64,000 bases of DNA from Spirochaetota bacterium (GTDB taxonomy: Bacteria; Spirochaetota; UBA4802; UBA5550), in contig JBNKTL010000024.1 of the NCBI GenBank assembly GCA_050298055.1, positions 14,809 through 78,808 of the forward strand. The letters run 5' to 3'. The notes under the pieces are model-generated. The model ran no database searches. It was given only the letters and a program-made list of their open reading frames with translations, and was not told the origin of the DNA. How positions within the stretch are numbered: the stretch's first letter is position 1; every line of letters begins with the position of its first letter. Below, piece after piece: positions 1 to 64,000 of the stretch. The position numbers and the translations under genes are program-made.

Positions 1-1
1 G

Positions 2-688
2 ATGGATAGTGTATATATAATCTCTCTTGGTTCAGCGTTCTGGCTTGGTATTATCACTTCAATAAGCCCGTGTTCTCTTGCCACAAACATTGCTGCTGTT
101 TCATATATCGGAAAGAATATTGAAGCAAAGACAACATCGGTTCTTTCAGGCATATTTTACGCTGCTGGAAGAGTCATCGTTTACATGTGCATTTCTTTCA
201 TAGTTGTTGAAACTTTTGACCGAGTGCCGGCTTTATCAATGTTTCTTCAGACCAAAGTTAATCTTGTTCTCGGCCCCCTGCTCATCCTGACCGGCCTGAT
301 ACTGCTGAATGTAATCAAACTGAGCTTTGGAGGTAATAACCATTCGGAGAAGGCTGAAAAGTTAACAAGAAAGGCTCCTCTGCTGGGTTCTGTGTTTATC
401 GGTGCTCTTTTCGCACTGGCTTTCTGTCCTGTTTCAGCTGCTCTCTTTTTCGGAAGCATGCTCCCCATTGCGGTGAAGCATAAATCAACTATTATTATTC
501 CTTCTCTCTATGGATTGGGTACGGCCCTCCCAGTTGTTGCTTTTGCTGTTTTAATAGCTAACGGAGCGAATTATCTCGGCAGTGTCTTCAACAAATTAAC
601 ACAGATAGAACTTTGGGTAAGAAGGGGCACAGGAATTATCTTTATTGGTGTGGGTGTATATTTAACCCTTGTATTTTTAATAATATAA
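2..688 (+). CDS. CcdA/DsbD-like (ArsG-like) membrane protein
   Basis: About 6 TM helices with the paired Cys motifs SISPC and AFCP typical of the CcdA/ArsG family. Confidence 0.75.
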   Translation: MDSVYIISLGSAFWLGIITSISPCSLATNIAAVSYIGKNIEAKTTSVLSGIFYAAGRVIVYMCISFIVVETFDRVPALSMFLQTKVNLVLGPLLILTGLILLNVIKLSFGGNNHSEKAEKLTRKAPLLGSVFIGALFALAFCPVSAALFFGSMLPIAVKHKSTIIIPSLYGLGTALPVVAFAVLIANGANYLGSVFNKLTQIELWVRRGTGIIFIGVGVYLTLVFLII

Positions 689-49344: not shown

Positions 49345-52300
49345 ATGTCGGGTAAAAAAAAGATGAAGTCAATGGATGGAAACCAGGCTGCATCCCATGT
49401 AGCATACGCTTTTACGGAAGTAGCGGCAATTTATCCAATTACACCATCTTCACCCATGGCGGAACATGTTGATGAATGGTCGGCACACGGGAAAAAGAAC
49501 ATATTTGGTGATATCATCAATGTTATTGAAATGCAGTCGGAAGCCGGTGCTGCAGGAGCAGTGCATGGTTCACTCCAGGCAGGCGCCCTTACTACAACCT
49601 TTACTGCGTCACAGGGGCTTCTGCTCATGATACCAAACATGTATAAAATTTCCGGCGAACTCTTACCCGGTGTTTTCCATGTAAGCGCCAGGACTTTGTC
49701 GGCCCATGCGCTCTCCATATTCGGCGATCATTCGGATGTCTATGCCACACGTCAGACGGGGTTCGCGCTGCTGGCAAGCAGCAGTGTCCAGGAAGTCATG
49801 GACCTCGGATCTATCGCGCACCTTGCCGCTGTAAAGAGCAGGGTCCCATTTCTCCATTTTTTTGACGGTTTCAGGACATCTCATGAGATCCAGAAGATTG
49901 AAGTCATTGAATATGATGACCTGGAAAAGCTCCTGGACAAGGATGCTGTTGATGAGTTCAGGAAAAGGGCCCTCAATCCTGAATCACCCGTTACCCGGGG
50001 TACCGCTCAGAATCCTGATATCTTTTTCCAGGAGAGAGAAGCGTCTAACCTCTACTATGAAAATGTTCCCGGCATGGTTGCCGGTTATATGGATGAAATC
50101 AGTAAAATTACCGGCCGAAAATACAGGCCTTTTGTCTACTACGGTGCGAAGGATGCCGAAAATATTGTCATTGCAATGGGCTCAGTCACCGAAACGCTTA
50201 AAGAGGTTGTGGATTACCTCAATTCCAGGGGAGAGAAGGCCGGACTTGTTACGGTCCATCTCTACAGGCCGTTTTCCGCAAAGTATCTCATGGAAGCCAT
50301 ACCGGATACAGCTAAAAAAATTACGGTTCTGGACAGGACAAAAGAACCGGGAGCAGAGGGAGAACCTCTCTACCTGGATGTGAGGAATGCCTATTACGAA
50401 TCAGGCACGCAGCCGGTAATTGTTGGGGGACGGTACGGACTCAGTTCCAAGGATGTCACCCCGGGAAGCCTTATTCCTGTTTTTGATAACATGAAGCTCC
50501 CGGAACCGAAGAACGGTTTTACCGTGGGTATTGTTGATGATGTTACCTTTAAGTCGCTTCCGCTCCACGATGAAGTCATTACTGTTCCCGAAGGAACAAT
50601 TGAGTGCAAGTTTTACGGGATTGGAGCCGACGGGACCGTTGGCGCCAACAAAAACTCAATAAAGATCATCGGTGACAATACCGATCTCTATTCCCAGGCA
50701 TATTTTTCATACGATTCGAAAAAATCGGGAGGGGTTACTGTTTCTAACCTCAGGTTCGGAAAGTCTCCCATCAAGTCAACCTACCTGATAACAAATCCCG
50801 ATTTTGTGGCCTGCCACGTCCCGTCATATCTCGATAAGTACGACATGCTCAAAGGGCTCAAGAAAGGGGGGACCTTCCTCATCAACAGTCTCTGGTGCGA
50901 GGATGAAATACTTGAGAAGATACCTGACAACATGAAAAAGTATATCGCCGATAACGACATCAAGGTCTATGTGATCAATGCAACGGACATTGCCGAGGAT
51001 ATCGGGCTGGGTACCCGGACAAATACCATCATGCAGTCCGCTTTTTTCAAGCTGGCCAATGTTATTCCCTACGAGGAATCGCAGAAGATGATGAAGGACG
51101 CTATCCTTAAATCATACGGAACAAAGGGGGATAATGTCGTCAAGATGAACTATGCCGCTGTAGACAGGGGCGGCGGAGAACTTGTTCAGCTGAAAATACC
51201 GGAGGAGTGGAAAAACCTGAAAGTCAAAGAACACCCGGTCATGGAAAACGCCCCTGCTTTTATCAGGGACGTGGCTGATCCCATTAACCACCTCAGGGGA
51301 GACCAGCTTCCCGTCTCATCATTTAAAGACTTCCCCGACGGGACCTTCCCTCCGGGAACAACCGCATACGAAAAGAGAGGAGTCGCGGTCCATGTTCCCC
51401 AGTGGATCCCCGACAATTGCATCCAGTGCAACCAGTGTTCCTATGTCTGCCCCCACGCGGTCATAAGGCCCTTTCTCCTCGATGAGAAGGAAGCGGCGGG
51501 AGTGCCGGAAGGGACACCGCTCATTGACGCGAAGGGAAAGGGACTGGAAGGCTACAGGTTCAGGATGCAGATAAGTCCCCTGGACTGTACCGGCTGCGGA
51601 AACTGCGCGGACGTATGCCCGTCAAAGGAGAAGGCCCTTGTTATGCAGCCCATGGAGTCCCAGATGGATGAAGACGCGCGCTGGGATTACTTCAGCAGAA
51701 ATGTCAGCTATAAGGGGGGTATCCTGGCCCCGGGCAATGTGAAGGGGAGCCAGTTCCTTCAGCCCCTCTTTGAATACTCCGGGGCATGCGCGGGATGCGG
51801 TGAGACCCCCTATGTGAAGCTTGTCACACAGCTTTTCGGGAGCAGAATGCTCATAGCAAACGCAACAGGCTGTTCTTCCATTTACGGCGGATCGGCCCCG
51901 TCTACACCCTACTGCACAAACACCGACGGCTGCGGTCCCGCATGGGCAAGCTCACTTTTTGAGGACGCGGCGGAGTTCGGATACGGCATGATGCTGGGGA
52001 TCAACCAGATGAAGGCCAGGGTCGCGGAACTTGCCCGGGTGTACATCGAGAACGGTTCCTCAAGCGATCTCAAGGATGCCCTGAAAGAGTGGATTGAAGG
52101 GAAAGAGGATGCGGATAAATCCGCCGAAACAGCAAAGAAGATCCTGCCCCTCCTGGAAAAGGATAAGAGCAGTGAGGCAAAGGAGATCCTCAAGCTGAAA
52201 AGCTACCTCGTTAAGAAGTCCGTGTGGAGTCTCGGGGGTGACGGCTGGGCCTACGATATCGGCTACGGCGGTCTTGACCATGTTCTTGCCTCGGGTGAAG

Positions 52301-52872
52301 ATATCAACATCCTCGTTCTCGATACCGAGGTCTACTCGAATACCGGGGGGCAGTCATCCAAGGCAACGCCTACCGGTTCCGTGGCGAAGTTTGCGGCCGC
52401 CGGCAAGAGGGTAAAGAAAAAGGACCTGGGGATGATGGCCATGAGCTACGGCTACGTGTACGTCGCGCAGATATCCATGGGCGCAAGCCAGTCGCAGACA
52501 CTGAAGGCCATTCGGGAAGCGGAAGCATACCCGGGACCCTCCCTGGTCATTGCCTACGCTCCCTGTATCAATCACGGGATCAGGGCCGGTATGGGCAAGA
52601 CACAGCAGGAGATGAAGAATGCCGTTGAGTCCGGGTACTGGCACCTCTACAGGTTCAACCCCCTCCTGGAAAAGGAGGGAAAGAATCCCTTCACCCTTGA
52701 CTCAAAGGAACCTGACTGGGGCAAGTTCCGGGATTTCCTCATGAGCGAGGTAAGGTATACATCTCTCAAGAAGACATTTCCCGAAGTTGCCGACGGGCTC
52801 TACGGGGAAGCGGAGGAGAACGCAAAGTGGAGATACAACAGGTATAAGAAGCTCGCGGAGATGGAGTATTAA
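49345..52872 (+). CDS. nifJ: Pyruvate:ferredoxin (flavodoxin) oxidoreductase
   Basis: YPITPS, CIQCNQC/CTGCGNC, GACAGCGE, GGDGWAYDIG. Confidence 0.97.
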   Translation: MSGKKKMKSMDGNQAASHVAYAFTEVAAIYPITPSSPMAEHVDEWSAHGKKNIFGDIINVIEMQSEAGAAGAVHGSLQAGALTTTFTASQGLLLMIPNMYKISGELLPGVFHVSARTLSAHALSIFGDHSDVYATRQTGFALLASSSVQEVMDLGSIAHLAAVKSRVPFLHFFDGFRTSHEIQKIEVIEYDDLEKLLDKDAVDEFRKRALNPESPVTRGTAQNPDIFFQEREASNLYYENVPGMVAGYMDEISKITGRKYRPFVYYGAKDAENIVIAMGSVTETLKEVVDYLNSRGEKAGLVTVHLYRPFSAKYLMEAIPDTAKKITVLDRTKEPGAEGEPLYLDVRNAYYESGTQPVIVGGRYGLSSKDVTPGSLIPVFDNMKLPEPKNGFTVGIVDDVTFKSLPLHDEVITVPEGTIECKFYGIGADGTVGANKNSIKIIGDNTDLYSQAYFSYDSKKSGGVTVSNLRFGKSPIKSTYLITNPDFVACHVPSYLDKYDMLKGLKKGGTFLINSLWCEDEILEKIPDNMKKYIADNDIKVYVINATDIAEDIGLGTRTNTIMQSAFFKLANVIPYEESQKMMKDAILKSYGTKGDNVVKMNYAAVDRGGGELVQLKIPEEWKNLKVKEHPVMENAPAFIRDVADPINHLRGDQLPVSSFKDFPDGTFPPGTTAYEKRGVAVHVPQWIPDNCIQCNQCSYVCPHAVIRPFLLDEKEAAGVPEGTPLIDAKGKGLEGYRFRMQISPLDCTGCGNCADVCPSKEKALVMQPMESQMDEDARWDYFSRNVSYKGGILAPGNVKGSQFLQPLFEYSGACAGCGETPYVKLVTQLFGSRMLIANATGCSSIYGGSAPSTPYCTNTDGCGPAWASSLFEDAAEFGYGMMLGINQMKARVAELARVYIENGSSSDLKDALKEWIEGKEDADKSAETAKKILPLLEKDKSSEAKEILKLKSYLVKKSVWSLGGDGWAYDIGYGGLDHVLASGEDINILVLDTEVYSNTGGQSSKATPTGSVAKFAAAGKRVKKKDLGMMAMSYGYVYVAQISMGASQSQTLKAIREAEAYPGPSLVIAYAPCINHGIRAGMGKTQQEMKNAVESGYWHLYRFNPLLEKEGKNPFTLDSKEPDWGKFRDFLMSEVRYTSLKKTFPEVADGLYGEAEENAKWRYNRYKKLAEMEY

Positions 52873-52902
52873 AGAGATACCTGAAGATAAGAGAATATTG
52901 TC

Positions 52903-52938
52903 AAAAGGGATGCCCTCCGGGAGCATCCCTTTTTTTTG
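52903..52938 (+). terminator. Rho-independent terminator
   Basis: AAAAGGGATGC..GCATCCCTTTTTTTT after nifJ. Confidence 0.8.
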
Positions 52939-52975
52939 AAATATCAGCATTTAATGAAAATACTCACCTGGCTAC

Positions 52976-53060
52976 TCAGCTATATAACTTAAAATTTGTA
53001 TATTGAATAAAATATCAGCAATGTGTCCCCGCCGCCCTCGGCGGCGGGGACACATCAGTT
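52976..53060. repeat. Dispersed hairpin element, copy 2
   Basis: ATGTGTCCCCGCCGCC-ctc-GGCGGCGGGGACACAT; flanks similar to 28011-28095. Confidence 0.85.
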
Positions 53061-53218
53061 ATGTCTTTTTATTAAAATGCTCTTTTTTATACACAGCCGG
53101 GTAGTTGCATACAAACTGATTATTAATATAAAAAATCATTGATTCTCTTTTTTTTACAGAGTATTATATGAATAGGATAAAAGGATATAATGTTCTCTAT
53201 ACAAAAAGGGGTGCTGTT

Positions 53219-55009
53219 ATGCTTAAAAATATTTCAATTAAACTAAAACTTATTCTCATCGGGGCCGTTTCCTTTTTAGCCATCGGGACGACTTTTTTTA
53301 TCCTGAATTTTTTTTCCCAGAGAACCGACAGGCTGAAGGACGGAAATTATTATACTGTTGCAATTGCCCGGGACGTCCTGCAGCTGAGAAGAGATGAGAA
53401 GGATTTTCTTAACAGGAAGGACCTGAAGTATCGCGACAAATTTGAAAAAAATTATCAACAGCTGAAAGGGAATGTCGAGAAGCTTGAAAGTATACTGAGG
53501 GACTATAATATTGCCGTTGATCATATCAAGGAAATGAAAAATGTCATATCGGAGTATAATACAAAATTTAATGCCATTGTTGAAGCTGAAACAAAGATCG
53601 GGTTAAATGAAAAAATCGGACTTTACGGCTCTTTGCGGAAAGCGGTTCATAATGCGGAAAACCTGTTAAATAAATTAAACAATTATGTGCTGCTCAAAGA
53701 TATACTGACACTGAGGCGTAACGAAAAGGACTTCATGCTGCGGCAGGACTGGAAATATGTTGATAAGTTCCAGAAGGATTTTCTTGTGATGAGGAATGGG
53801 GTGACGGGATCCGCTCTTTCACCTGGCATGAAAATACAGGTCCGGACTTTTCTCGATAAATACAGGAGTGATTTCATGAAGCTTGCGGAAAACCTGAAAA
53901 CAAGAGGGCTTTCTTCAAATGAAGGGCTCCTGGGCGAACTGCGGGACGCCATACACAGAACCGATAAGATCATAGTCGAGTCCTCAACTGAAATAACGAA
54001 GGGTATTGAAAGAGAGGTCTTAAACGCGAGGTTTTTAGGAGTTCTTTTCCCTGTAATTTTTCTTTTCATAATAATTGTATTTATTTCTCTTATCGCAAGG
54101 AACATTCTTACGGCGCTCAGGCAGGTTGTTGACGTGTCCGAAAGGCTTGCCCGGGGAGATCTGACTGCAAAAATTGATATCTCCGGAAAGGATGAAACTT
54201 CACAGGTCCTTCTCTCAATACAGAACATGCTGAAAAAAATCAACGGCGTCCTCTCCCTTGTTGCGCAACAGGCATTTGAGATCTCGGAATATTCACGTGA
54301 ACTGAACAAAGCCGCGCAGGACCTCTCCCAGGGAGCAAATGAGCAGGCCGCAAATGCAGAAGAGTTTTCATCTTCACTGGAAGAGTTAATGGCGACTATC
54401 AGCCAGAATGCCGAAAATTCAAAGGCTACTGAAAAAATCGCTGTGAATACTGCCAGGCAGGCCCGGGAGGGGGGAGATGCGGTAGATTTAACCGTCAACG
54501 CAATGAAGGACATTGCGGAAAGGATCAGCCTGATCGATGATATTGCCTACCAGACAAACCTCCTGGCCCTTAACGCTGCCATTGAAGCAGCCCGTGCGGG
54601 AGAACATGGGAAAGGCTTTGCTGTTGTTTCCGGTGAAGTGCGCAAACTTGCCGAACGCAGCCAGCTTGCTTCCAAAGATATTGGAGAGCTTGCAGAATCA
54701 AGTGTGGACCTGGCTAACAGGGCCGGGTCGCTTCTTAAAGAAATAGTGCCCAGTATTAATAAAACTACCGATCTTGTGCAGGATATCACAAATGCTTCGG
54801 AGCAGCAGGACAGCGGTATCAAGCAGATCGGTTCGGGAATGGATCAGCTCAATCTTGTAACACAGAGTAATGCATCAATATCGGAAGAGCTGGCGGCTTC
54901 ATCGTCAAAAATGGAAGAGAATGCCGTGAAACTTAAAGATGCAATTGATTTCTTTAAGCTGGATGATCTTCAGAAAGCAGAGGATGTTCATTTAATAGAG
55001 GAACAATAA
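53219..55009 (+). CDS. Methyl-accepting chemotaxis protein
   Basis: TM, duplicated LRR.EKDF sensor, [33 protein letters not shown]. Confidence 0.95.
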
Positions 55010-55061
55010 TTAATTGCAGGATATAATGTCCTGCAATGTTCCAAATCTGTTTTATTACGAT

Positions 55062-55239
55062 ATACCCGCTCTGCCGTGTAGGTAAGGTTTTTGAACCTGG
55101 TAAACCAGGTGGGGTCCCGCATGGAAACTTCAACCTTCTCCTGACAGGGGAGTATGATCTCCAGATCCAGATTAGGGTTTCCCTCTTAACATGTATTGGT
55201 TCAAAAATACGTCATACCTATCACGCACAGCGCAGGCAT
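55062..55239 (-). ncRNA. ssrS: 6S RNA
   Basis: Reverse strand ..CTGCGCTGTGCGTGATAGG..TTTTTGAACCAAT..AGGG..CCCACCTG..GGTTCAAAAA..CCTACACGGCAGAGCGGG: about 180 nt rod with paired ends, TTGAACC/GGTTCAA stem and central bubble. Confidence 0.8.
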
Positions 55240-55326
55240 ATAACCAAAGCACAAAAAGAGCTGTATATATCAACTGTTTTTTTCATCTCTCAATAATAAT
55301 TATTACTTAAATAGAGAGTCAAATTG

Positions 55327-55484
55327 AACCGCTAGGGCGCAAAGGGCGCAAAGGGCGCAAAGTTTTTTCAATTTACATTTGGAAAAAATATTGTGTTATA
55401 TCCAAAAGGCACTTTTTCTTCCTCTTGCTTTGTGTGAACCTATTCTTTCCTTTCTTCCTTTGCGAACCTTGCGTCTTTGCGGTT
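55327..55484. repeat. 9-nt-periodic inverted repeat element
   Basis: Left AACCGCTAG(GGCGCAAAG)x3, right CTTTGCGAACCTTGCGTCTTTGCGGTT, about 95 nt spacer. Confidence 0.8.
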
Positions 55485-55672
55485 TCAGATTCTTTTTTTC
55501 AACCCGGAACCCTGAATTATTCGTGGTAAATTTTTAATTGACAGTATCCGGTTGAGACGTAAAAGTATTTTTTTCAATTTTAATACTGGACAGCAGAAAC
55601 CTGATCAACTATCTGTAAAGTGAGTTGAATATTAAAGCAAAAACAACAGAAAAGGCAATTGAGGGAAAAAAG

Positions 55673-56434
55673 ATGTTAACCAAATATTTTGAAGAGTTTG
55701 ATAAAAAGGTCGTAACGAAAACAAAGGCAGCTGCAAAAAAAACAGCATCAAAAACAGCAAAGAAAAAAGCAGGAAAAAAGAGTGCTAAAAAAACTGTTTC
55801 AACAACGAAAAAAATCAAATTCAATACAAAGCTGTTTGCTGAAAATCTCAATAAAATAATACCCACTCATCTTACCGCAAAAGATGTAAAACCGGTGGAT
55901 TCATCGGGATTTTCACCTGAAGGGGCGGATCTTATCATCTTTAAAGAATACTGCAGAGACATTGTTGAGATCATGAATGGCTGCATCCCCTTCGAACTTG
56001 TCTATGGAGCAATCCACATCGAACCTCAACTGAACCAGAAAACCCTTAAGGAAACAATTGAACGGGTTCTCTCTGTGAAGAAACTTAACAGGTATACAGA
56101 GACAGCTGATGAAGCTGAAAGTTATCCCATTCCCTCTTTTGTGGTATCTGCGGATACCGATTTGACCATCGGTGAAATGAAGAATTCCCTCATCAACTAT
56201 TACATGGCGAAGAGCATTGATCACAAGCTGGAAGTTGATATTCTTGTTGTTTTGAACAAAGGAATTGTTGTTAAGGATTGGAAGGAGAAGAGAAGCTATA
56301 TCGGCCTTGAAACCAATGAAGATACGATGTACTGGTTCTTTATTCTTATGAATGAATATCTTGATATCGAGAAAAACATTGAACTGGATTTCAGGAATTA
56401 TATCATGAAGAATGTGACATATAACCAGTATTAA
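55673..56434 (+). CDS. Hypothetical protein (DUF6602-like) with Lys/Ala-rich insert
   Basis: DSSG.S...DLII..IPFE.VYG.I pattern; alternative TTG start at 55625. Confidence 0.55.
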   Translation: MLTKYFEEFDKKVVTKTKAAAKKTASKTAKKKAGKKSAKKTVSTTKKIKFNTKLFAENLNKIIPTHLTAKDVKPVDSSGFSPEGADLIIFKEYCRDIVEIMNGCIPFELVYGAIHIEPQLNQKTLKETIERVLSVKKLNRYTETADEAESYPIPSFVVSADTDLTIGEMKNSLINYYMAKSIDHKLEVDILVVLNKGIVVKDWKEKRSYIGLETNEDTMYWFFILMNEYLDIEKNIELDFRNYIMKNVTYNQY

Positions 56435-56627
56435 GTGTTTTGTTAAAAAAACTTGTATATCCAATAAATATTATTTGACATATTCATTAATCTCTCTCAA
56501 TCTTATACCCGGTGTATGCAATAAAAAGGGAGTGTTCTCATAATTACAGAGATGTTCCTTTTCGGGTACATAATACAGAGGAAATTTAATTGTTAAGGTA
56601 CCCAGAATCCATAACAGGAGATTTATT

Positions 56628-57716
56628 TTGAATAAATATCTAACAAAACGCGGGTGGATCATTCTATTTCTGGTTGTTTCTCTCATCTCCGGTCTTATGC
56701 AGAACAGGCTGTATGCACGGGATAACAGGAATGTTATTCTGGTCCTGGATACCTCCATGAGTATGATCGGATATGGCGGGAAAGATATCCTTGGAAGAGT
56801 TAAGGCAAGCATTAAGAACTATGTGGACAAACTGGAGGATGGGGACAAGGTTACCTTTATGACCTTTGATACAGAGGTGAAGACGTATCCTACCATACTT
56901 GTCGATGATGAGAACGATAAGGATATTCTTAAAAAGTATATCTCCATGATAGAAGCAAAGGGTAAGTGGACCTTTACCATAAAGATGATTAAAGCTGTTT
57001 TTAAAAAGGCCGAGGAGATTACGAAACTTGAGGACGATAAGGACAGAAAAACCGTTATTGTCATAATGACTGATGCCCTTGATGATCCTCCTCCGGGGAA
57101 ACGGAGAGAGAGATTCAACATGAAATCACTTTCCAGTGAATATTCCGGTAAAGACTGGTGGATATACTTTGTAAGTTTTACAGAGTTGAAGAAGAACCAG
57201 AAGATTGTGGATGAGCTGAAAAAGGAACTGAAAAAAGTTGCTCAAAAAACAAAAATTATTGATGCAACAGATCAGCCTGAGAAAGGAATGAAAGAGGTTG
57301 AAAAAGACCATCCTGCTGATGCGGGCATTCCTTCCTGGATAATAATTGCCATACTCCTTGTGGGGGTTCTTGTTATTGTTTTACTGGTGGTTAAGAGAGG
57401 TCCCGGTGTTGTGGTAACGGGAACACTGGAATACTGGAACACCGACATCCTGGATCCGTATATTGAACAATTTGACCTGGGTAAGCATATGACCAATGAG
57501 ATAGTTGTCGGAAAGGGCGTAAACTGTCACCTGAAGGTGCATGATATAGAAATTCCGGGTACCTTCAGCATCTTTGCTGATAAAAATCAGCCGGGACTCA
57601 GAATCAAGGCATCGCAGGGTGTGGAATTTAACTTTAAGAATAAGGACTCAGGGAATGTCCTGGAAGATGGTGATATATTTGAGGTTGGCAACTTTGGTTT
57701 TAAATATAATGCCTGA
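56628..57716 (+). CDS. vWA-domain membrane protein with C-terminal FHA-like domain
   Basis: Signal peptide, MIDAS DTSMSM..T..TD, TM helix, IVVGKG..LEDGDIFEVG tail. Confidence 0.8.
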   Translation: MNKYLTKRGWIILFLVVSLISGLMQNRLYARDNRNVILVLDTSMSMIGYGGKDILGRVKASIKNYVDKLEDGDKVTFMTFDTEVKTYPTILVDDENDKDILKKYISMIEAKGKWTFTIKMIKAVFKKAEEITKLEDDKDRKTVIVIMTDALDDPPPGKRRERFNMKSLSSEYSGKDWWIYFVSFTELKKNQKIVDELKKELKKVAQKTKIIDATDQPEKGMKEVEKDHPADAGIPSWIIIAILLVGVLVIVLLVVKRGPGVVVTGTLEYWNTDILDPYIEQFDLGKHMTNEIVVGKGVNCHLKVHDIEIPGTFSIFADKNQPGLRIKASQGVEFNFKNKDSGNVLEDGDIFEVGNFGFKYNA

Positions 57717-57927
57717 AAAAGAATTTTGAATGCTGATAAAATATGCTCTGTTTGCCGGTTTTTTCCGGCCGGCAAAGGAGCTTTGCAAAAATTAGTTATA
57801 AGCTTAAATATATCTTGACATTAAAACTTATTTTGATAAATATATCTAAAATTTGTTTTCTATATTCTAAATTTTGATAATCTTGAAAAACTGATTGTGT
57901 TTTAATAATTTGAAGGAGGATAGTTAA

Positions 57928-59886
57928 ATGGCTGTAGGTCAATTCCCAAAAAGTCCAAACAAGTTCCATCCGGAAATTCCCAGTGCTGTCGGTTCGAGGA
58001 ATTCTCTGGCTCAGGAAGGGAGGGATAAGGTTGCTGAACATAAACTCATCCTGGATGAGACGACTGATAAAGTTCTCAATCATATTGTGAACAAACTCCC
58101 CCCGGAAGTACTGGAAAATATGAATGTAATGGGTGGTCTGAAAGAATATCTTTACAGGTATATTAACCAGCACTATGTTAACATGTTTAACAGGTACCAG
58201 GTAACTGTTGAAGACGAATTTATAAAAAAAGTAAGGGACTTTGTGGACAGGGAAGAGTCCAAGACCCTTAACAGGTATACTCCCAAAGAGATAACCGAGA
58301 TTCTTGACAAGATTGGTGGTGCCGATAAGTTCCATACCGGTGAGATTGAAAAATCCATCGTAAACATGTATGGACACCTCCAGGGTCACATTCAGAGGGG
58401 TGTGACTGACCTGGAAGTTGAGACCAACTCCATACTGAGACAGAAAACAGATGTCGGCGCCTTTGTCCGCGGTGAAAATGCTTACTCAATCCTGAAATGT
58501 ATATTTAAAGACAATAACTTGAGAAAGAAGCATGTCTATGATGTTAAGCTTTCAATAAACATACTGGACAGTGAGCTTATCAGCCCCATGTATCACTATC
58601 AGACAACTGTTGAAAAGCTTTTAAAAGACGCGATCCAGAAGCATGTCCAGGACCTCATTGACCACCAGGTCGAGGCATTTAACGATGAACTGGTTGACCA
58701 GGGTAAGAGGGATCTCGGAGCAAGCGAAAAGATGTTTGAGAAGTTCAAAAGAATTGAGAACTTTACAGATGACGAAAAGGAAGACGAGAAGTCAAAGAGA
58801 TACACAATCCTTGCCAAGAAGTTCCTCGACAAAATAGAGGGCCTCAGGGCGGAGATCGATGAAGAGGAAAGAGATCCTCTGAACATCCGGGATAATATCA
58901 AATATATTATCGATGAAGAGAATATCAGGAACAGGGGCTACAACACATGCGTTAATTCTCTTACCTCCATTCTCGATACAAGTAAGCTCGGTTACCAGGT
59001 GTGCGACAACCTGAAAAACGCGCGGATCTGTCATATCAGGGAGTACGAGAGCAGAGATGTTATTGAACTCCCCGATGAAAGATACGCAATGAGGCTTGCA
59101 TATTATGACAGCAACCAGCTTCGGGAAGAGAAGAAAGAGTTTGATAAGCAGATGAGAGCTTTCACCATTGCTATCCAGGAGATATGGGACGTTACACACG
59201 CTTACTACGAGTCCAAGAAGAGATTCAGGTCTCTCAAGGACCTTGATGATCTTTACAACAGGATCATGAGTAAGGAGTGGAAAGCCGAGAAGAAAGCCCG
59301 GGACGTAGATCCTGATTCTGTTCCCTGGAATGAAGTGGGTGAGATGTATATCGAAAACACTTTTGTTGAGAAGAACAACAGGACATATGAGGACAGGATC
59401 AAGAATCTTCAGGGTAAGATAAAATACCTGAGAGATATTCTGGAAAACATGCACAAGTACCAGAACCCGGTTGAGCGGGTGATCATTGATGAAAGGCTGA
59501 ACTTCCTCGAAGCAAAGTTCAACGCTTTTACCTACATAGTGAATCCTCACCACATTCAACCCGGCGTTGTGCTTGATATTGATATTACAACAATCAAGAG
59601 AAAGCAGTACATGCTGAAGGGTATGGCTAATGTGCTCAACGAATTCCTCTACGGTGTTTCAAAAGGATTTGCGGATGCGGCATTTGCGTCATACAGCAGA
59701 AGGAGAAGTACCGTTCGGGCTGATATCGACCAGACTTTCGGCGATGAAGCCGTGGAAGATGAGTTCTTCGATATGGCTTACAAGGATTCCGGCGGGACCG
59801 GTGTAAAGAGTGAAGTGAAAGGTTCGGTAAGCCTGTCACCTTCTAAGAGCAAAAGCAAGAAAAGTTCAGGACTTAAAGAGCTATAG
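57928..59886 (+). CDS. cfpA: Cytoplasmic filament protein CfpA
   Basis: PKSPN.FHPE.PSAVGSRNSLAQE and LRQKTDVGAFVRGENAYS motifs of spirochaete CfpA. Confidence 0.88.
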   Translation: MAVGQFPKSPNKFHPEIPSAVGSRNSLAQEGRDKVAEHKLILDETTDKVLNHIVNKLPPEVLENMNVMGGLKEYLYRYINQHYVNMFNRYQVTVEDEFIKKVRDFVDREESKTLNRYTPKEITEILDKIGGADKFHTGEIEKSIVNMYGHLQGHIQRGVTDLEVETNSILRQKTDVGAFVRGENAYSILKCIFKDNNLRKKHVYDVKLSINILDSELISPMYHYQTTVEKLLKDAIQKHVQDLIDHQVEAFNDELVDQGKRDLGASEKMFEKFKRIENFTDDEKEDEKSKRYTILAKKFLDKIEGLRAEIDEEERDPLNIRDNIKYIIDEENIRNRGYNTCVNSLTSILDTSKLGYQVCDNLKNARICHIREYESRDVIELPDERYAMRLAYYDSNQLREEKKEFDKQMRAFTIAIQEIWDVTHAYYESKKRFRSLKDLDDLYNRIMSKEWKAEKKARDVDPDSVPWNEVGEMYIENTFVEKNNRTYEDRIKNLQGKIKYLRDILENMHKYQNPVERVIIDERLNFLEAKFNAFTYIVNPHHIQPGVVLDIDITTIKRKQYMLKGMANVLNEFLYGVSKGFADAAFASYSRRRSTVRADIDQTFGDEAVEDEFFDMAYKDSGGTGVKSEVKGSVSLSPSKSKSKKSSGLKEL

Positions 59887-59907
59887 AAAAACGTAAATTG
59901 AATTGAA

Positions 59908-59943
59908 GAAAGGGGTACCCTGCGGGGATACCCCTTTTTTTTT
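59908..59943 (+). terminator. Rho-independent terminator
   Basis: AAAGGGGTA.CC..GG.TACCCCTTTTTTTT after cfpA. Confidence 0.8.
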
Positions 59944-60162
59944 CTTTAGTTTGAGATTTTTTTTTATTTTTTCACAAAATACTTGCAAATTATTGAAGTC
60001 TTGATTATCTTCTCAATTTACATGATCAGAAGGTATTTTTTTATCCGGTCAATAGTTTCTTTCCATTCTGACAGAAGTACCGGTTGCCTTACCGGTTCTT
60101 TTCTGAGAAAAGGATGTGTTATTTGATCCGGTTATTTATACCTCAAAAAGGAGATTAGTATA

Positions 60163-61068
60163 ATGGATACCACATTTATTTCACTTGCTTCAAAATCAAA
60201 TTTTAACAAGGCCCTGCGGCATTTTTTCAGTGTTACCGATATAGTTGATGAAGTAGAGTCTGATTCCAACCTGGCAGATGTTGTCAATAAATTGCTGGAT
60301 GCGGATGAAATTCAGCATGAACAGGTTTTGCCCTTTGTTGGCGCAATCATACGGGACAAATTTCAGTACAGCTATGATTCATACAGTTTAACGGAATCGG
60401 TTTCAGATTTTAGTAAAATTGCAGAAGAGGTCTCAAAGTGGAGTGCCCTGGACATAGTGATCGTATACTTTTCGCCTCTTGGTGATGCAGTACTTATCAA
60501 TCCTAAAAACACATCCCATTTTGATATTGCAAGGGAACTCACGAAAGACCAACTGGTGGTTATCTACTCCAAATACTTAAAAAATGATAACAAAAAACTT
60601 GAAGAAGAAGCCATTTCCTCACTGGAAGAGATGCTGGCCGGGAAAGATGTTTTCAGCAATAAAGAATTTATTGACCAGACAAGAGTGGCAAAACCCGTGG
60701 CAGCACCTCAACCCGTTCAGGCTCCCGGGAAAAAATCGAAGAATGTTACCGAAAAATACCCGGTGGTGGTTTCAAACGAACTTTTCCATAATGGCAATGT
60801 TGAAGCCTGGAAAAAAATAATTGAAAGCTATCACACCAAGTTCCCGGATCTCACGGTTACTGTTTACTTCGAAGGTGAACTTATTAATGATATCAATGCT
60901 CTTTTCAAGTGGGGTAAAGTAAAGCACGCGGATTCAATATTTTTTGATGTTGCCGGTGATAATATTAAAGGTGTATCAAAGCTTAAAAAATATCTCTACG
61001 AGGGAGCAAGTCCCCGGTTTGAGCAGTTTTTAAAGGTTGGTATCGGCCAGGTCCTGAACCTGTTTTAG
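60163..61068 (+). CDS. Conserved hypothetical protein with putative C-terminal HPr-like domain
   Basis: RBS aggag; VVVSNELFHNG..KF..VTVYFEG..IN..GKVKHADSI..VAG.N resembles the HPr pattern (by-eye alignment). Confidence 0.7.
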   Translation: MDTTFISLASKSNFNKALRHFFSVTDIVDEVESDSNLADVVNKLLDADEIQHEQVLPFVGAIIRDKFQYSYDSYSLTESVSDFSKIAEEVSKWSALDIVIVYFSPLGDAVLINPKNTSHFDIARELTKDQLVVIYSKYLKNDNKKLEEEAISSLEEMLAGKDVFSNKEFIDQTRVAKPVAAPQPVQAPGKKSKNVTEKYPVVVSNELFHNGNVEAWKKIIESYHTKFPDLTVTVYFEGELINDINALFKWGKVKHADSIFFDVAGDNIKGVSKLKKYLYEGASPRFEQFLKVGIGQVLNLF

Positions 61069-61099
61069 AAAACATGAGAATGATTAAGGAGATAAGTAA

Positions 61100-63706
61100 A
61101 TGGATAAGAATATAATATATTTTAACAAGGATCTGAAAGATCTTGATGAAAAAGTAAGGGAAAAACTCGGTATAAGGGGAAGGAGAGCTGTTGATCTTGC
61201 ATTGATGGGTCTGCCCATTGCTCCGGGTTTTATCATTGATTCCGAACTTACCCTTAAGCTTCCCAAGGTAAATATCAAAACAATGCTGAAAACCTATATC
61301 AATAATATTGAGAAGGAAGTGAAGAAAAAATTCGGAGATCCGGAAAAGCCGCTGATGCTGAAAATGGTATTAAGTTCTGATCTCAATGTTCCTTACTTTC
61401 CCTCTATCCACAACATCGGGATGAATGATCAGACCGTTAAGGGATTCGGGAAAAATACCGGCATCGATTTTGCCTATGGTGAATATGTCTACCTTCTGAG
61501 AAATATCGGGGATAAACTTTTCGATGTTGAAGAGGCTGATAAAAAAAACATCGAGGGAAAGCTCCCTAAAAAACCGAAAGTCGAAGATAATAAAAAAGTT
61601 ATTGCCGACTATAAGAAACACTATGGTGATCAATTTTCCGAAGATGTCTATGATCAGCTGATCAATCTCCTGAAGACCGCGTCAGAGAAATACTGTGATT
61701 CTGATATTGATGTTGATAACTCACTTTCCATAATGATCCAGGCGATGGTCTATGGCAATTTCGGAACAAACTCCTATTCCGGTAACTACTATACGAGAAA
61801 CATTGTAACGGGTGATTCCGAGATACAGGGGGATTTCCTCAAGAATGCCTTTGATTTTGGCTATGGGAAGTCTACGGATATCAAAAAAATTGACAAGAAA
61901 TACTATGACAAGTTTACAAAGATTGCCCAGAACCTCGAAGAAAATTTCAAGGAAGTGAGGAATATCAAGTTTACAATAGAAGAAGGAGACTTCTGGCTGG
62001 TTGAACAGAGGGAAGTGGATGAAAAGTCAACACAGTCCCAGATCAAGTGCCTCCTGGAACTGAACAAACGGAAGAAAATCGAAGATGATTACCTCGTGAA
62101 GAACATCAAACCGAACCAGCTTAATGAGCTGCTTCACCCTGTCATCGATCCGCGGACGATAAAAACAATAAAGAGCATCAAGGGCGGCATTTCCGGATCA
62201 ACCGGTGCGGCCATAGGAAGGGTCTATTTCTCAACAGCCAAGCTCATGGAGGAATACAGAAAAGCCATTATGAAGGGGCAGGATAAAAACGTTATCCTCT
62301 GTCTCCCTGCTTCATACGCGGAGGATGTAAAGGCGATTGAGGTGGCACAGGGTGTACTGACAAACGAAGGCGGATTTTCATCACATGCCCCGGTTGTTGC
62401 GCGAAGCCTCGGAAAGGTGGCAATGGTCCAGCCCGATATGAAGATCAGGGGGAATACGTTTACCCTGGGGGGGAAAACGGTAAAAGAAGGTGATTACATC
62501 TCCATGAATGTTCCTTATTATGAGGACCCGACCATATACCTGGGCAAGGTCGGGTTGATTGAGCCCGATTTTAAAAAGAACGGGCTGCATGATTTTCTTG
62601 CGGTAACTGAGAACTTTATCGATGAATTCGATGTTCATGCAAATGCCGACCAGGGGAGGGACGCGATTGTTGCCCGGGAATTCAATGCAACGGGGATCGG
62701 GCTCTGCAGAACCGAGCATATGTTCTTTAATGAAAAAAGGATCATGAAGTTCAGAGAGATGGTCATCGCCGATGATGAGAAGGAGAGGAGAAAGGCCCTG
62801 GACCAGCTTCTTCCAATGCAGCGGTCGGATTTTTATGACCTTTTCAAGGTCATGGGCGGATACCCGGTTACTATCCGTCTCCTTGACGCCCCGCTTCACG
62901 AGTTTCTCCCGAGATCTGAAGCGAGCATGAAGGACTTTATCAAGTATATGAAGACCCGGAAGAAGAGTGCTTCTCCCACAGAGATAAGGGCACGGTGCGA
63001 GGAGCTGGGGGAGATGAACCCCATGCTCGGTCACAGGGGGTGCAGGGTGGCCGTAACATATCCCGAGATATACGAAATGCAGTGCCGGGGAATTTTTGAA
63101 GCTGCCTGTATGCTGAAAAAAGAGGGTCTCGATGTAAAGCCTGAAATAATGATACCCATTGTCATGACAGAAGAGGAGATCAAGTTTGTCAAGAATGGGA
63201 AAAAGATAGAGGGTACAACTGTCAAAGGGATCAGGGACATCATGGCCGAGGTCGTGGAAGAGTATGGCTTTGATGAGCTGGAATATAAGGTGGGAACCAT
63301 GATTGAGCTTCCTGCCGCGGCACTGGGTGCGGGAAATATCGCCAAGTATGCGGAGTTTTTCAGTTTTGGAACAAACGACCTGACACAGACTACATACGGT
63401 CTTTCACGGGATGACTCCAACACCTTCTTCCCCGATTACTCTCTCTTTGACCTTTTGAAACACAACCCGTTTAAATATCTCGGAGATGAGGTTAAGGAGC
63501 TTATCAGTGTGGCTTCCATCAGGGGTAAGCTGACACGGCCGGATATCATGATGGGACTCTGCGGTGAACATGGTGCTAATCCCGATAACATCAGATTCCT
63601 CATGGAAGCCGGGCTTAACTACGTATCATGTTCCCCCTATTCCGTACCTCTTGCAAAACTTGCAATAGCTCAGATAAATATTGAGGCCCGGGAAGCTGAT
63701 AATTAA
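61100..63706 (+). CDS. Pyruvate phosphate dikinase-like PEP-utilising protein with degenerate nucleotide-binding domain
   Basis: GGFSSHAPVVAR (His429), GLCRTEHMF, NPMLGHRGCR, FGTNDLTQ, GLCGEHG intact; N-terminal ATP motifs altered. Confidence 0.88.
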   Translation: MDKNIIYFNKDLKDLDEKVREKLGIRGRRAVDLALMGLPIAPGFIIDSELTLKLPKVNIKTMLKTYINNIEKEVKKKFGDPEKPLMLKMVLSSDLNVPYFPSIHNIGMNDQTVKGFGKNTGIDFAYGEYVYLLRNIGDKLFDVEEADKKNIEGKLPKKPKVEDNKKVIADYKKHYGDQFSEDVYDQLINLLKTASEKYCDSDIDVDNSLSIMIQAMVYGNFGTNSYSGNYYTRNIVTGDSEIQGDFLKNAFDFGYGKSTDIKKIDKKYYDKFTKIAQNLEENFKEVRNIKFTIEEGDFWLVEQREVDEKSTQSQIKCLLELNKRKKIEDDYLVKNIKPNQLNELLHPVIDPRTIKTIKSIKGGISGSTGAAIGRVYFSTAKLMEEYRKAIMKGQDKNVILCLPASYAEDVKAIEVAQGVLTNEGGFSSHAPVVARSLGKVAMVQPDMKIRGNTFTLGGKTVKEGDYISMNVPYYEDPTIYLGKVGLIEPDFKKNGLHDFLAVTENFIDEFDVHANADQGRDAIVAREFNATGIGLCRTEHMFFNEKRIMKFREMVIADDEKERRKALDQLLPMQRSDFYDLFKVMGGYPVTIRLLDAPLHEFLPRSEASMKDFIKYMKTRKKSASPTEIRARCEELGEMNPMLGHRGCRVAVTYPEIYEMQCRGIFEAACMLKKEGLDVKPEIMIPIVMTEEEIKFVKNGKKIEGTTVKGIRDIMAEVVEEYGFDELEYKVGTMIELPAAALGAGNIAKYAEFFSFGTNDLTQTTYGLSRDDSNTFFPDYSLFDLLKHNPFKYLGDEVKELISVASIRGKLTRPDIMMGLCGEHGANPDNIRFLMEAGLNYVSCSPYSVPLAKLAIAQINIEAREADN

Positions 63707-63718
63707 ACAGTCTTATAA

Positions 63719-63746
63719 ACAGGCGCGGCGGTTTTGCCGCGCCTGT
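63719..63746 (+). terminator. Hairpin, probable terminator
   Basis: ACAGGCGCGGC-ggtttt-GCCGCGCCTGT after the PPDK-like gene; no clear T tail. Confidence 0.5.
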
Positions 63747-63781
63747 AAGAGAAAAACAATATCACGCCTGTAATTGAGATA

Positions 63782-64000
63782 GTGGGAAAAATATCAACCG
63801 AACTCAGGGAAATCTATCTCTTCCTTAAAAACAATAACGATTCAATTATTATAATGAGCGCAGCTGTTCTTTTCCTTATCCTGGGAAAATATATGGGGAT
63901 AAGGCCCGGCTGGTTTAATGCGTTTCTTTTCTATTTTCTTTTCCCGGCTCTTGTAATACTGCTGTTGCTGAGAAAAAATCCCCTGGATTTCGGGTTGAGG
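63782..64000 (+). CDS. 5' part of a membrane protein, probably CPBP/CAAX-protease family (runs off window)
   Basis: Open frame from GTG 63782: ..SAAVLFLILG..FLFPALVILLLLRKNPLDFGLR. Confidence 0.5.
   Translation, partial: MGKISTELREIYLFLKNNNDSIIIMSAAVLFLILGKYMGIRPGWFNAFLFYFLFPALVILLLLRKNPLDFGLR

Follow-up and report, generated by a model that had tools for sequence, protein, structure and literature searches.

We report that a spirochaetal paralogue of pyruvate, phosphate dikinase (PPDK), here called PPDKL, has kept its PEP/pyruvate site and its phospho-His while catalytic residues of its ATP-grasp domain have been replaced family-wide, and that it is inherited together with UP, a TP_0747-family protein carrying two predicted HPr-shaped folds, and with cfpA, the gene for cytoplasmic filament protein A. 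These features are best explained, although with somewhat less than an even chance of being right, by a relay in which phosphate would pass from PEP to His429 of PPDKL and on to His209 of UP, tied to the CfpA filament. Specifically, PPDKL would be a neofunctionalised PPDK paralogue whose PEP domain and His429, to judge from their intact residues, would be expected to carry out the reaction PEP + E-His -> pyruvate + E-His~P. Its ATP-grasp domain would have lost the canonical AMP/PPi chemistry and been remodelled, most likely into a docking site, and UP would be the obligate partner, the second of its two HPr-shaped domains presenting His209 at the position of HPr His15. PEP to His429 to His209 would be the most likely route, i.e. 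a PTS-like front end on a PPDK scaffold, with an output that may act on, or report the metabolic state to, the CfpA filament.

The genes were studied in a 64,000-nucleotide stretch of DNA from a Spirochaetota bacterium (contig JBNKTL010000024.1; in the following "the window"), and the features are collected in Table 1. The two open reading frames and the 31 nt between them are as given in an earlier sequence-only reading of this DNA; an AAGGAG motif is present 8 nt 5' of the PPDKL ATG. That reading mentioned neither cfpA directly upstream nor the better of the two HPr-like folds in UP (residues 69-162). A point against the proposed tie is that, in the window, cfpA and the UP-PPDKL pair have a strong terminator between them (z -4.79 on RNA folding, with 0 of 200 shuffles as good); this hairpin was spotted by reading and folding the sequence and is absent from the consensus terminator scan.

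Table 1. Features of the cfpA-UP-PPDKL region (positions are those of the window)
Feature	Position	Strand	Evidence
cfpA, cytoplasmic filament protein A, 652 aa	57928..59886	+	NF040882 889.3 bits, cut-off 500
Intrinsic-terminator-like hairpin and U-run 3' of cfpA	59905..59943	+	RNA fold -24.3 kcal/mol
UP, TP_0747-family protein, 301 aa	60163..61068	+	Pfam PF27497
UP HPr-like fold 1 (predicted), residues 69-162	60367..60648	+	VIA-align vs HPr chains
UP HPr-like fold 2 (predicted), residues 196-290, with invariant block V203..S222	60748..61032	+	Domain model
UP His209 codon CAT, candidate phospho-acceptor	60787-60789	+	
PPDKL, PPDK paralogue, 868 aa	61100..63706	+	TIGR01828, 1dik alignment
PPDKL remodelled ATP-grasp domain, residues 1-340	61100..62119	+	PF01326 25.3 bits, <27
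PPDKL His429 codon CAT, swivel-domain phospho-His	62384..62386	+	PF00391 40.2 bits
PPDKL intact PEP/pyruvate domain, residues 498-860	62591..63679	+	PF02896 230.8 bits

The HMMER alignment of PPDKL with Clostridium symbiosum PPDK (1dik_A; E 8.1e-156, with a numbering that reproduces H455) runs from end to end, residues 18-860 on residues 14-870 of 1dik, and the PPDK domain order of ATP-grasp, swivel His and PEP/pyruvate TIM barrel is kept, with PF00391 and PF02896 both above their own cut-offs. The catalytic His is conserved (H455 in 1dik, H429 in PPDKL), as are the PEP/pyruvate residues R561 (R537), R617 (R593), E745 (E736), N768/D769 (N759/D760) and C831 (C821), all checked at the codon level. 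H429 is His in 69 of 69 PPDKL-family sequences, and R537, R593, E736, N759, D760 and C821 are invariant columns of the family alignment, which bears out the earlier observation that the phospho-His and the PEP/pyruvate-site motifs are retained; at the level of residues, this full conservation argues for real phosphoryl chemistry. The whole protein scores 697.7 bits with TIGR01828 and does not reach the equivalog cut-off of 843.45, and the TIGR01828 scores are bimodal (~1300 versus ~610-740 bits). Elsewhere the genome has genes for a canonical PPDK (TIGR01828, 1397.5 bits) and for a pyruvate kinase, and the sequence-only reading was thus right that PPDKL, a diverged paralogue, is not the metabolic PPDK of the organism; the identity between PPDKL and this canonical PPDK is 34% overall and 23% in the N domain. 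With respect to PTS Enzyme I (EI), TIGR01417 matches the PEP domain only (residues 638-863; 105.6 bits, with the cut-off of 341.7 not reached), this domain aligns with solved EI chains at E 3e-19, and the N-terminus of PPDKL aligns to the PPDK ATP-grasp and not to the helical HPr-binding subdomain of EIN.

In canonical PPDK, mutagenesis points to K22, R92, D321, E323, Q335 and R337, together with the GEDVVAG loop, as the catalytic residues of the ATP-grasp domain. Compared with 1dik, the changes in PPDKL are K22->R26, R92->V90, G101->Y99, M103->F100, R135->Y131, Q277->F251, D321->N288, E323->K290 and Q335->E302, with R337 aligned to R304, and the Gly-rich GEDVVAG loop is deleted. The replacements are family-wide (n=69 sequences; K22R, R92V/A and Q277F in 69 each and E323K/R in 67). 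The register at Q335/R337 is ambiguous, there being two extra PPDKL residues between W299 and K309: MAFFT aligns the canonical Gln with the invariant PPDKL Q303 instead of E302, and the Arg337 position is variable across the family in either register. The earlier claim that the canonical nucleotide-domain motifs had been replaced therefore stands for K22, R92, D321, E323 and GEDVVAG, while the assignment of Q335 and R337 is ambiguous. Moreover, Pfam PPDK_N (PF01326) scores 25.3 bits on PPDKL (cut-off 27) versus 223.7 on the canonical PPDK of the same genome. These changes are not chance, and the N domain is not decaying, since it has invariant residues of its own (R26, K88, S92, H104, E128, F251, R287 and E294) and a mean pairwise identity of 45%. 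PPDKL is thus probably not a canonical AMP/PPi dikinase. A role of Lys22 in ATP-grasp catalysis is described in PMC4844700, and residue-level roles of the PPDK ATP-grasp residues were not found in PMC5507339 or PMC5371819.

UP is a member of the TP_0747_N family (PF27497, T. pallidum TP0747) and is composed of a helical N-terminus (residues 1-66), fold 1 (69-162), a variable disordered linker (163-195), fold 2 (196-290) and a C-terminal tail; the mean pLDDT of its AF2 model is 90.4. Precomputed Pfam data have PF27497.1 (TP_0747_N) on UP itself and on 120 of the 120 homologues listed, and the domain is carried by 92-98% of the members in the Atlas clusters. TP_0747_N is a named domain whose function is unassigned in Pfam. 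The predicted fold 1 superposes on HPr chains with Z 9.6 and rmsd 1.7 A over 79/83 residues (VIA-align) and has no conserved His, the His15-equivalent being F83, which is variable. For the domain model of residues 196-290 (pLDDT 92.0, pTM 0.87), HPr takes the top 4 places among 48,161 chains (Z 7.2-6.6), and the best superposition has an rmsd of 2.5 A over 80/84 residues at Z 7.2, a middling value of a size that, according to the search tool, models lacking a true relative often reach. Foldseek likewise lists HPr in its top rows (E 0.025-0.2, best 0.025), and both predicted folds show the open-faced beta-alpha-beta-beta-alpha-beta-alpha sandwich of HPr. At the sequence level, Pfam at E<=10 gave no match, PF00381 included, for either half of UP, hhalign against 31 spirochaete HPr sequences gave probabilities of 1.6% (C-terminal domain) and 2.9% (middle domain), and the best phmmer match of UP in the PDB had E 0.066, to unrelated proteins. 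The HPr pattern noted earlier in the last ~90 aa is accordingly upheld as a fold (predicted models, Foldseek and chain ranking) and undetectable as a sequence (Pfam, hhalign). Between the two folds of UP the hhalign probability is 0.2%, and a common origin by internal duplication is thus unsupported. No functional study of TP0747/TDE0843 or TDE0844 was found in the literature searched, where TP0747 is absent and TDE0843 is mentioned only in a row of a transcriptome table.

In the models of UP, His209 directly precedes helix A (210-226), and from the aligned ranges together with DSSP we infer that it holds the His15-like helix-A N-cap position, in line with what had been read from the sequence. 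All 77 of 77 orthologues have His here, as do 77 of 81 members of a wider family set, the four divergent members having S, Q, N or T; the residue sits inside a 20-residue block that is invariant among the 77 orthologues. All residues of its immediate context, H209-N-G-N, are invariant. In HPr, Arg17 lies two residues after His15, and a counterpart of this Arg is absent from UP. Invariance of the whole block would be as much in keeping with an interface or a catalytic site as with a phospho-acceptor loop. Prediction of a complex between PPDKL 1-490 and full-length UP, both supplied as alignments, gave an ipSAE of 0.00 in two runs, which speaks neither for nor against binding. The sequence-only reading had proposed an EI-like His kinase that phosphorylates its HPr-like partner, and this proposal is supported in part. 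That phosphate passes to His209 is a real possibility, if on balance a doubtful one.

The adjacency of UP and PPDKL is tighter than that of either with cfpA. PPDKL directly follows UP in 79 of 80 related loci (the remaining one, L057, ends at UP) with a median gap of 32 nt and a gap of <=92 nt in 70 of the 79, and in 73 of the 80 the gene immediately 5' of the pair is cfpA. Among 61 genomes of the phylum, UP and PPDKL-level matches are present in the same 21, always adjacent, and CfpA in 20 of those, with CfpA in 0 of the 40 genomes without UP. In G011 and G039 the pair is intact with cfpA on another contig, and in G010 with cfpA apart on the same contig and on the opposite strand. An exhaustive search of representative proteins identified one, P0381 (841 aa), in which CfpA (626.8 bits) is fused to the N-terminal part of UP. 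Of 3215 longer proteins screened as candidates for a fused UP form none scored, which is weak evidence. Table 5 of PMC3914990 shows joint repression of the T. denticola genes TDE0842 (cfpA), TDE0843 and TDE0844. On the co-inheritance counts chance adjacency is rejected; UP and PPDKL very probably form a functional partnership, and the best reading is a module specific to spirochaetes and associated with the filament gene cfpA.

Depositors often label PPDKL-type proteins "pyruvate, phosphate dikinase", as would be expected if an ordinary, somewhat divergent PPDK merely neighboured an unrelated hypothetical protein; with adjacency in 79 of 80 loci, both genes in the same 21 of 61 genomes, bimodal TIGR01828 scores and replaced catalytic residues, this is most improbable. 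Another explanation is that PPDKL is a small-molecule phosphotransferase with a rewired nucleotide/phosphate site, e.g. PEP + NDP/NMP (+/- PPi) -> pyruvate + NTP or transfer to another acceptor in the remodelled cleft, UP being a regulator or tether and no phospho-acceptor. On the adenine side, the ATP-grasp motifs Q214, M-V-Y-G-N and T232 are still present, hence a rewired nucleotide site may exist; K22->Arg is conservative, acidic E/D302 and basic K/R290 remain in the cleft, and charge seems to have been relocated (K88 two residues before V90, K/R290 at E323, and E/D302 or Q303 at Q335). In the PPDK-related rifampin phosphotransferase (RPH) catalysis survives removal of the Mg-coordinating Glu (PMC4844700), the literature assumes that T. 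pallidum TP0746 is glycolytic (PMC10013896), and a treponeme genome that lacks canonical PPDK and pyruvate kinase (G321) fits a metabolic role there. We nevertheless consider it unlikely, since R92, R135, the G101/M103 loop and the GEDVVAG loop have been lost together and PPDK_N scores below its threshold. Furthermore, a canonical PPDK accompanies PPDKL in 20 of the 21 genomes of the phylum sample that have the latter (the exception, G017, is only 73% complete), and PPDKL is found only in UP genomes, all but one with CfpA, unlike a central-metabolism enzyme.

The phyletic coupling with CfpA and the P0381 fusion would equally suit UP and PPDKL as accessories of the CfpA filament without His-to-His transfer to UP. 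PPDKL might then sense PEP/pyruvate or phosphorylate another target, for instance CfpA, and UP might be an adaptor whose HPr-shaped domains merely represent a common alpha/beta sandwich; UP has no sequence homology to HPr, its fold 1 is devoid of a His at the His15 position, and His209 is missing from 4 of 81 divergent members. Such an accessory role, which we hold to be somewhat unlikely, has to be set against a His209 that is invariant in the 77 orthologues exactly at the helix-A N-cap, a pairing with PPDKL that is tighter than with cfpA (G011, G039 and G010), and a PPDKL with its PEP site and phospho-His fully conserved.

The proposed relay can be compared with known systems. PPDKL and the homologous EI have the PEP-binding TIM barrel and the swivel phospho-His domain in common, and as for EI/HPr the partner has an HPr fold (predicted) with a His at the helix-A N-cap, the genes being adjacent and co-inherited. 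In contrast, PPDKL has an ATP-grasp relic where EI has its helical HPr-binding subdomain, and UP differs from HPr in lacking sequence similarity and Arg17 and in having two HPr-like folds and a helical N-terminus. Unlike the PTS (EI/HPr, EI-Ntr/NPr), PPDKL/UP travels with a cytoskeletal gene and not with sugar permeases. The genome also encodes EI-type proteins and, on contig C20, a true HPr, the only PF00381 match in a whole-genome search. Relative to canonical PPDK (TIGR01828; C. symbiosum 1dik and maize 1vbg), the three-domain order, the phospho-His and the PEP/pyruvate residues are identical, whereas the score is below the equivalog cut-off and the ATP-grasp residues are replaced throughout the family. 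VadK (Rv1127c) of M. tuberculosis offers a precedent: it is described as a His kinase that derives from PPDK, has a regulatory function and acts via its catalytic His, and it is, like PPDKL, a PPDK relative with a proposed regulatory role outside central metabolism (PMC13400623). The losses are opposite ones: VadK, which autophosphorylates from ATP, retains ATP-grasp and His domains and no longer has a PEP domain, and PPDKL retains PEP and His domains and has lost the ATP-site residues.

With more reserve, we suggest that spirochaetes with a CfpA filament may carry a second, PTS-independent PEP phosphorelay (His429 to His209 of a tandem HPr fold) that couples the PEP/pyruvate ratio to the cytoskeleton. 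If true, this would be the third bacterial use of PEP as a protein phosphoryl donor, after EI/HPr and EI-Ntr/NPr, and would have arisen independently from PPDK, mirroring the VadK case described recently. The enigmatic cytoplasmic filament of spirochaetes gains two conserved and testable partners, UP and PPDKL.

Finally, in the 1.14-Mb genome G321 of a syphilis-type treponeme, PPDKL is the sole PPDK-type gene and pyruvate kinase is absent; its product scores 608.5 bits with TIGR01828, which is below the cut-off, and has its ATP-grasp residues replaced. The locus agrees with the published TP0746-TP0751 region in gene sizes, in coordinates and in having a Pallilysin-domain neighbour, and T. pallidum TP0746, annotated as a glycolytic Ppdk, appears to be a PPDKL-type paralogue and not a canonical PPDK. 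No functional study of the T. pallidum dikinase was found in the literature searched, and T. pallidum metabolic models that count ATP from the TP0746 step rely on a putative annotation; were the PPDKL phosphorelay true, the enzyme shown as the final, ATP-yielding step of glycolysis in the syphilis spirochaete would be no dikinase. A GTP-type PEPCK in G321 represents an alternative exit from PEP.

In the window, the filament gene cfpA is followed by the genes of UP, a TP_0747-family protein, and PPDKL, a PPDK paralogue in which H429 is the phospho-His (table). The UP-PPDKL spacing is 31 nt and an AAGGAG motif is located 8 nt upstream of the PPDKL start. Because a strong terminator-like hairpin is positioned directly after cfpA, UP and PPDKL are probably expressed through read-through or from a promoter of their own, at a level below that of the filament protein; this hairpin is absent from the output of the consensus terminator scan. 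By its CfpA match, the organism belongs to Spirochaetota.

Positions of genes, hairpins and predicted protein segments at and around the UP-PPDKL locus and in L123, G321 and contig C8
Feature	Position	Strand	Remarks
GC-rich stretch	window 51000-52500		GC up to 0.55-0.57 vs 0.37-0.44 over most of the profiled 50000-64000
Methyl-accepting chemotaxis protein	window 53168-55009		MCPsignal 124.2 bits, HAMP 41.2 bits
DUF6602 protein	window 55625-56434; L123 8215-8883		upstream of cfpA
VWA-domain protein	window 56628-57716; L123 8923-9633		upstream of cfpA
cfpA	window 57928-59886	+	652 aa; NF040882 889.3 bits (cut-off 500)
Intrinsic-terminator-like hairpin and U-run	window 59905-59943		directly 3' of cfpA; -24.3 kcal/mol, z -4.79
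Second, weaker hairpin	window 60079-60096		
UP	window 60163-61068	+	301-aa ORF
PPDKL	window 61100-63706	+	868-aa ORF
UP helices	residues 11-66		three (AlphaFold2)
UP unit 1	residues 70-158		beta-alpha-beta-beta-alpha-beta-alpha (AlphaFold2)
UP linker	residues about 163-195		disordered, length-variable (AlphaFold2)
UP unit 2	residues 199-281		topology of unit 1 plus an extra short helix (AlphaFold2)
CfpA, UP orthologue and PPDKL of G321	810,674-816,545	-	678, 344 and 901 aa
Open frame in the genome of the window	C8:66684-68135		1469 aa (L003, L004)

Among the 80 loci fetched with UP (named records, all MAGs, labelled spirochaete or only "bacterium"), PPDKL follows UP in 79 and the remaining one, L057, ends at UP; measured with the first start codon as gene start, the gap between the two genes is 32 nt at the median and ≤92 nt in 70/79. 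CfpA is encoded directly upstream of UP in 73 of these loci; of the remaining seven, six offer <320 nt of sequence ahead of UP, and L034 has 1.95 kb with no CfpA match. In an even draw of 61 Spirochaetota genomes, a profile of the UP C-terminal domain matches 21 and CfpA 20, while full-length TIGR01828 matches below cut-off (620-740 bits) are present in exactly the 21 UP genomes, each adjoining UP. Only one of the 21 (G048) has the pair with no CfpA match, and CfpA was found in none of the 40 UP-negative genomes of the sample. Canonical PPDK is present in 20 of the 21 (the exception, G017, is 73% complete) and true HPr in all 61. Mere adjacency of UP and PPDKL is excluded by the co-inheritance counts. 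The UP-PPDKL pair is a real, conserved module and would represent a new variation on PEP-dependent phosphotransfer.

According to Table 5 of PMC3914990, TDE0842 (cfpA), TDE0843 and TDE0844 ("PPDK, putative") of T. denticola are repressed together. In our literature search a single transcriptome table was the only place where TDE0843 and TDE0844 appeared, as rows; TP0747 was absent, and the search returned no functional study of TDE0843/TP0747 or TDE0844. One protein of the UP family search (P0381, 841 aa) carries CfpA (626.8 bits, residues 8-594) followed by UP residues 5-196 at 620-810; this single case could reflect a genuine fusion or an error of gene calling. One sampled genome (G005) has three CfpA-family matches above cut-off on three contigs, of which only one adjoins a UP-PPDKL pair.

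PPDKL is a paralogue and not the metabolic enzyme: at other loci, the genome of the window (4.7 Mb, 98% complete) has genes for a canonical PPDK (1397.5 bits), to which PPDKL is only 34% identical, as well as for a pyruvate kinase (617.5 bits), two EI-type proteins and a single true HPr (83.9 bits). The alignment generated with HMMER between PPDKL and C. symbiosum PPDK (1dik_A, whose chain numbering gives H455 correctly and was used directly) runs end to end (E 8.1e-156, residues 18-860 on 14-870). The phospho-His and PEP-site residues H455, R561, R617, E745, N768/D769 and C831 are kept as H429, R537, R593, E736, N759/D760 and C821, in contrast to the changes K22 to R26, R92 to V90, G101 to Y99, M103 to F100, R135 to Y131, Q277 to F251, D321 to N288 and E323 to K290. 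R337 corresponds to R304, the same residue, and the Gly-rich GEDVVAG loop is deleted. Q335 falls on E302, in a register (300-305) that is ambiguous due to two extra residues, MAFFT aligning the canonical Gln with the invariant Q303. PPDKL scores 25.3 bits with Pfam PPDK_N (cut-off 27) vs 223.7 for the canonical PPDK of the same genome, and 697.7 bits with TIGR01828 (cut-off 843.45). The motif changes described in the sequence-only reading were thus accurate, and PPDKL, while homologous to canonical PPDK, falls outside it by equivalog score and ATP site.

The same pattern is present in 69 PPDKL sequences (68 full-length orthologues from the 80 loci plus the window; L021 and L083, which overrun their stop at the C-terminal end, are in this count and were left out of the family alignment). 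In all 69 the K22 position is R, R92 is V or A, Q277 is F, the Q335 column is E or D and the phospho-His is H; the E323 position is K or R in 67/69, and the residues at the D321 and R337 positions vary. Once the G321 orthologue is included (70 sequences), the N domain is the least conserved part, at 45% mean pairwise identity; the corresponding values are 64% (His domain) and 67% (PEP domain). Invariant N-domain residues that differ from canonical PPDK are R26, K88, S92, H104, E128, F251, R287 and E294, and as judged from the alignment the N domain is remodelled and not decaying. Another PPDK-derived architecture in the genome of the window is the 1469-aa frame on contig C8, with matches to the PPDK ATP-grasp (240.5 bits, profile 18-335) and swivel-His (98 bits) domains and no PEP-domain match.

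UP gave no match in our local Pfam or NCBIfam copies and none in the PDB (best E 0.066); its database tag is PF27497 (Atlas name TP_0747_N). The family is narrow: a search of 1.84 billion representatives yielded 196 clusters at E≤0.001. An AlphaFold2 model based on an 81-row alignment has a mean pLDDT of 90.4. For residues 69-162, VIA-align over the Foldseek list ranks approximately 30 HPr/Crh/NPr chains first (Z 9.6, rmsd 1.7 Å, 79/83 residues). The C-terminal domain modelled alone (pLDDT 92.0, pTM 0.87) has HPr as its best four matches among 48,161 representative chains, with Z 7.2, 7.1, 6.7 and 6.6 (rmsd 2.3-2.9 Å over 78-80 residues; model 7..96 aligned to chain 1..84). According to the tool's own guidance, models lacking a true relative often reach Z 7-8. 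Behind HPr come the C-terminal domains of aIF2-alpha and further ferredoxin-like folds (Z ≤6.0), and Foldseek agrees weakly with HPr (best E 0.025). Profile-profile comparison gave no sequence relationship between the C-terminal domain and 31 spirochaete HPr sequences (probability 1.6%), between the middle domain and HPr (2.9%) or between the two domains (0.2%). Hence, the HPr pattern proposed from sequence for the end of UP holds as a predicted fold but not as sequence kinship. A 488-aa protein, P0343, with UP residues 4-138 N-terminally and a LigA fragment (248 bits) C-terminally, is probably a chimera or two genes called as one.

In the model, helix A of the C-terminal unit starts at 210 and His209 is its N-cap residue, at the site where HPr carries His15; as ranges and not residue pairs were compared, this equivalence is good to about one residue. 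The histidine, whose conservation had been one of the proposed checks, is invariant in 77/77 orthologues, within an invariant block from V203 to S222. In the wider 81-row set, which includes distant cluster representatives, 77 have His at 209 and four have S (P0286), Q (P0292), N (P0334) or T (P0356). The middle unit has F83, a variable hydrophobic position, at the equivalent place.

The best-supported reading, which we hold tentatively, is that the pair constitutes a PPDK-derived, PTS-like front end. PEP would phosphorylate His429, the swivel domain would move the phosphoryl group to the remodelled N domain, and UP, docked there, would accept it on His209, with an output that would concern the CfpA filament. 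The likeness to EI/HPr, drawn from sequence and predicted folds, would be one of mode of working: PPDKL scores 105.6 bits with the EI profile (cut-off 341.7), and UP falls outside HPr by sequence but has the predicted fold and the His15-like histidine. The EI-like kinase with an HPr-like partner suggested previously is borne out in part, in the observed residue patterns, predicted folds and co-inheritance, from which we infer every chemical step. The nearest precedent for a PPDK that became a regulator is M. tuberculosis VadK, in which the other half of the enzyme was retained (PMC13400623).

Two other explanations have to be weighed against this relay. That PPDKL and UP are filament accessories with no transfer to UP is rather unlikely, and is favoured by the lack of sequence homology between UP and HPr and by the four relatives lacking the histidine. 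That PPDKL is a rewired small-molecule phosphotransferase we consider unlikely. Its N domain retains Q214, an M-V-Y-G-N segment and T232, which we take to be the adenine side of the ATP-grasp fold, and because of these motifs PPDKL may have a rewired ligand site; charges also appear to be relocated (K88, K/R290, E/D302). Moreover, the Mg-ligand Glu is dispensable in rifampin phosphotransferase (PMC4844700).

G321, a single contig of 1,139,633 bp from the order that also includes the Treponema MAG behind L086, was treated as a T. pallidum-type genome for two reasons. Its gene sizes agree with the T. pallidum literature, as do the codon positions of the published TP0746 variants A869T (810772) and P655S (811414), and beyond cfpA, on the opposite strand, lie genes for a VWA protein and a Pallilysin-domain protein. 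Its only PPDK-type gene is PPDKL (TIGR01828 608.5 bits, below cut-off; PPDK_N 21.8 bits), with R, V, R, F and E at the K22, R92, E323, Q277 and Q335 positions and with intact His and PEP sites. Pyruvate kinase was not found in this genome, and a GTP-type PEPCK was (544.3 bits); the latter would be a candidate route from PEP should TP0746 lack dikinase activity. TP0746 is described in PMC10013896 as the glycolytic enzyme that "most likely" converts PEP, AMP and PPi into pyruvate and ATP, an assignment by annotation. G321 cuts both ways: it gives the finding its importance, the module bearing directly on how T. pallidum metabolism is drawn, and it is the best argument for PPDKL still moving carbon from PEP to pyruvate.

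The VWA-cfpA neighbourhood may be old. DUF6602 and VWA keep their order upstream of cfpA in the closer relatives of the 80-locus set, with DUF6602 matched in 30 and VWA in 36. Further upstream in the window are the chemotaxis protein gene and the GC-rich stretch listed in the table.
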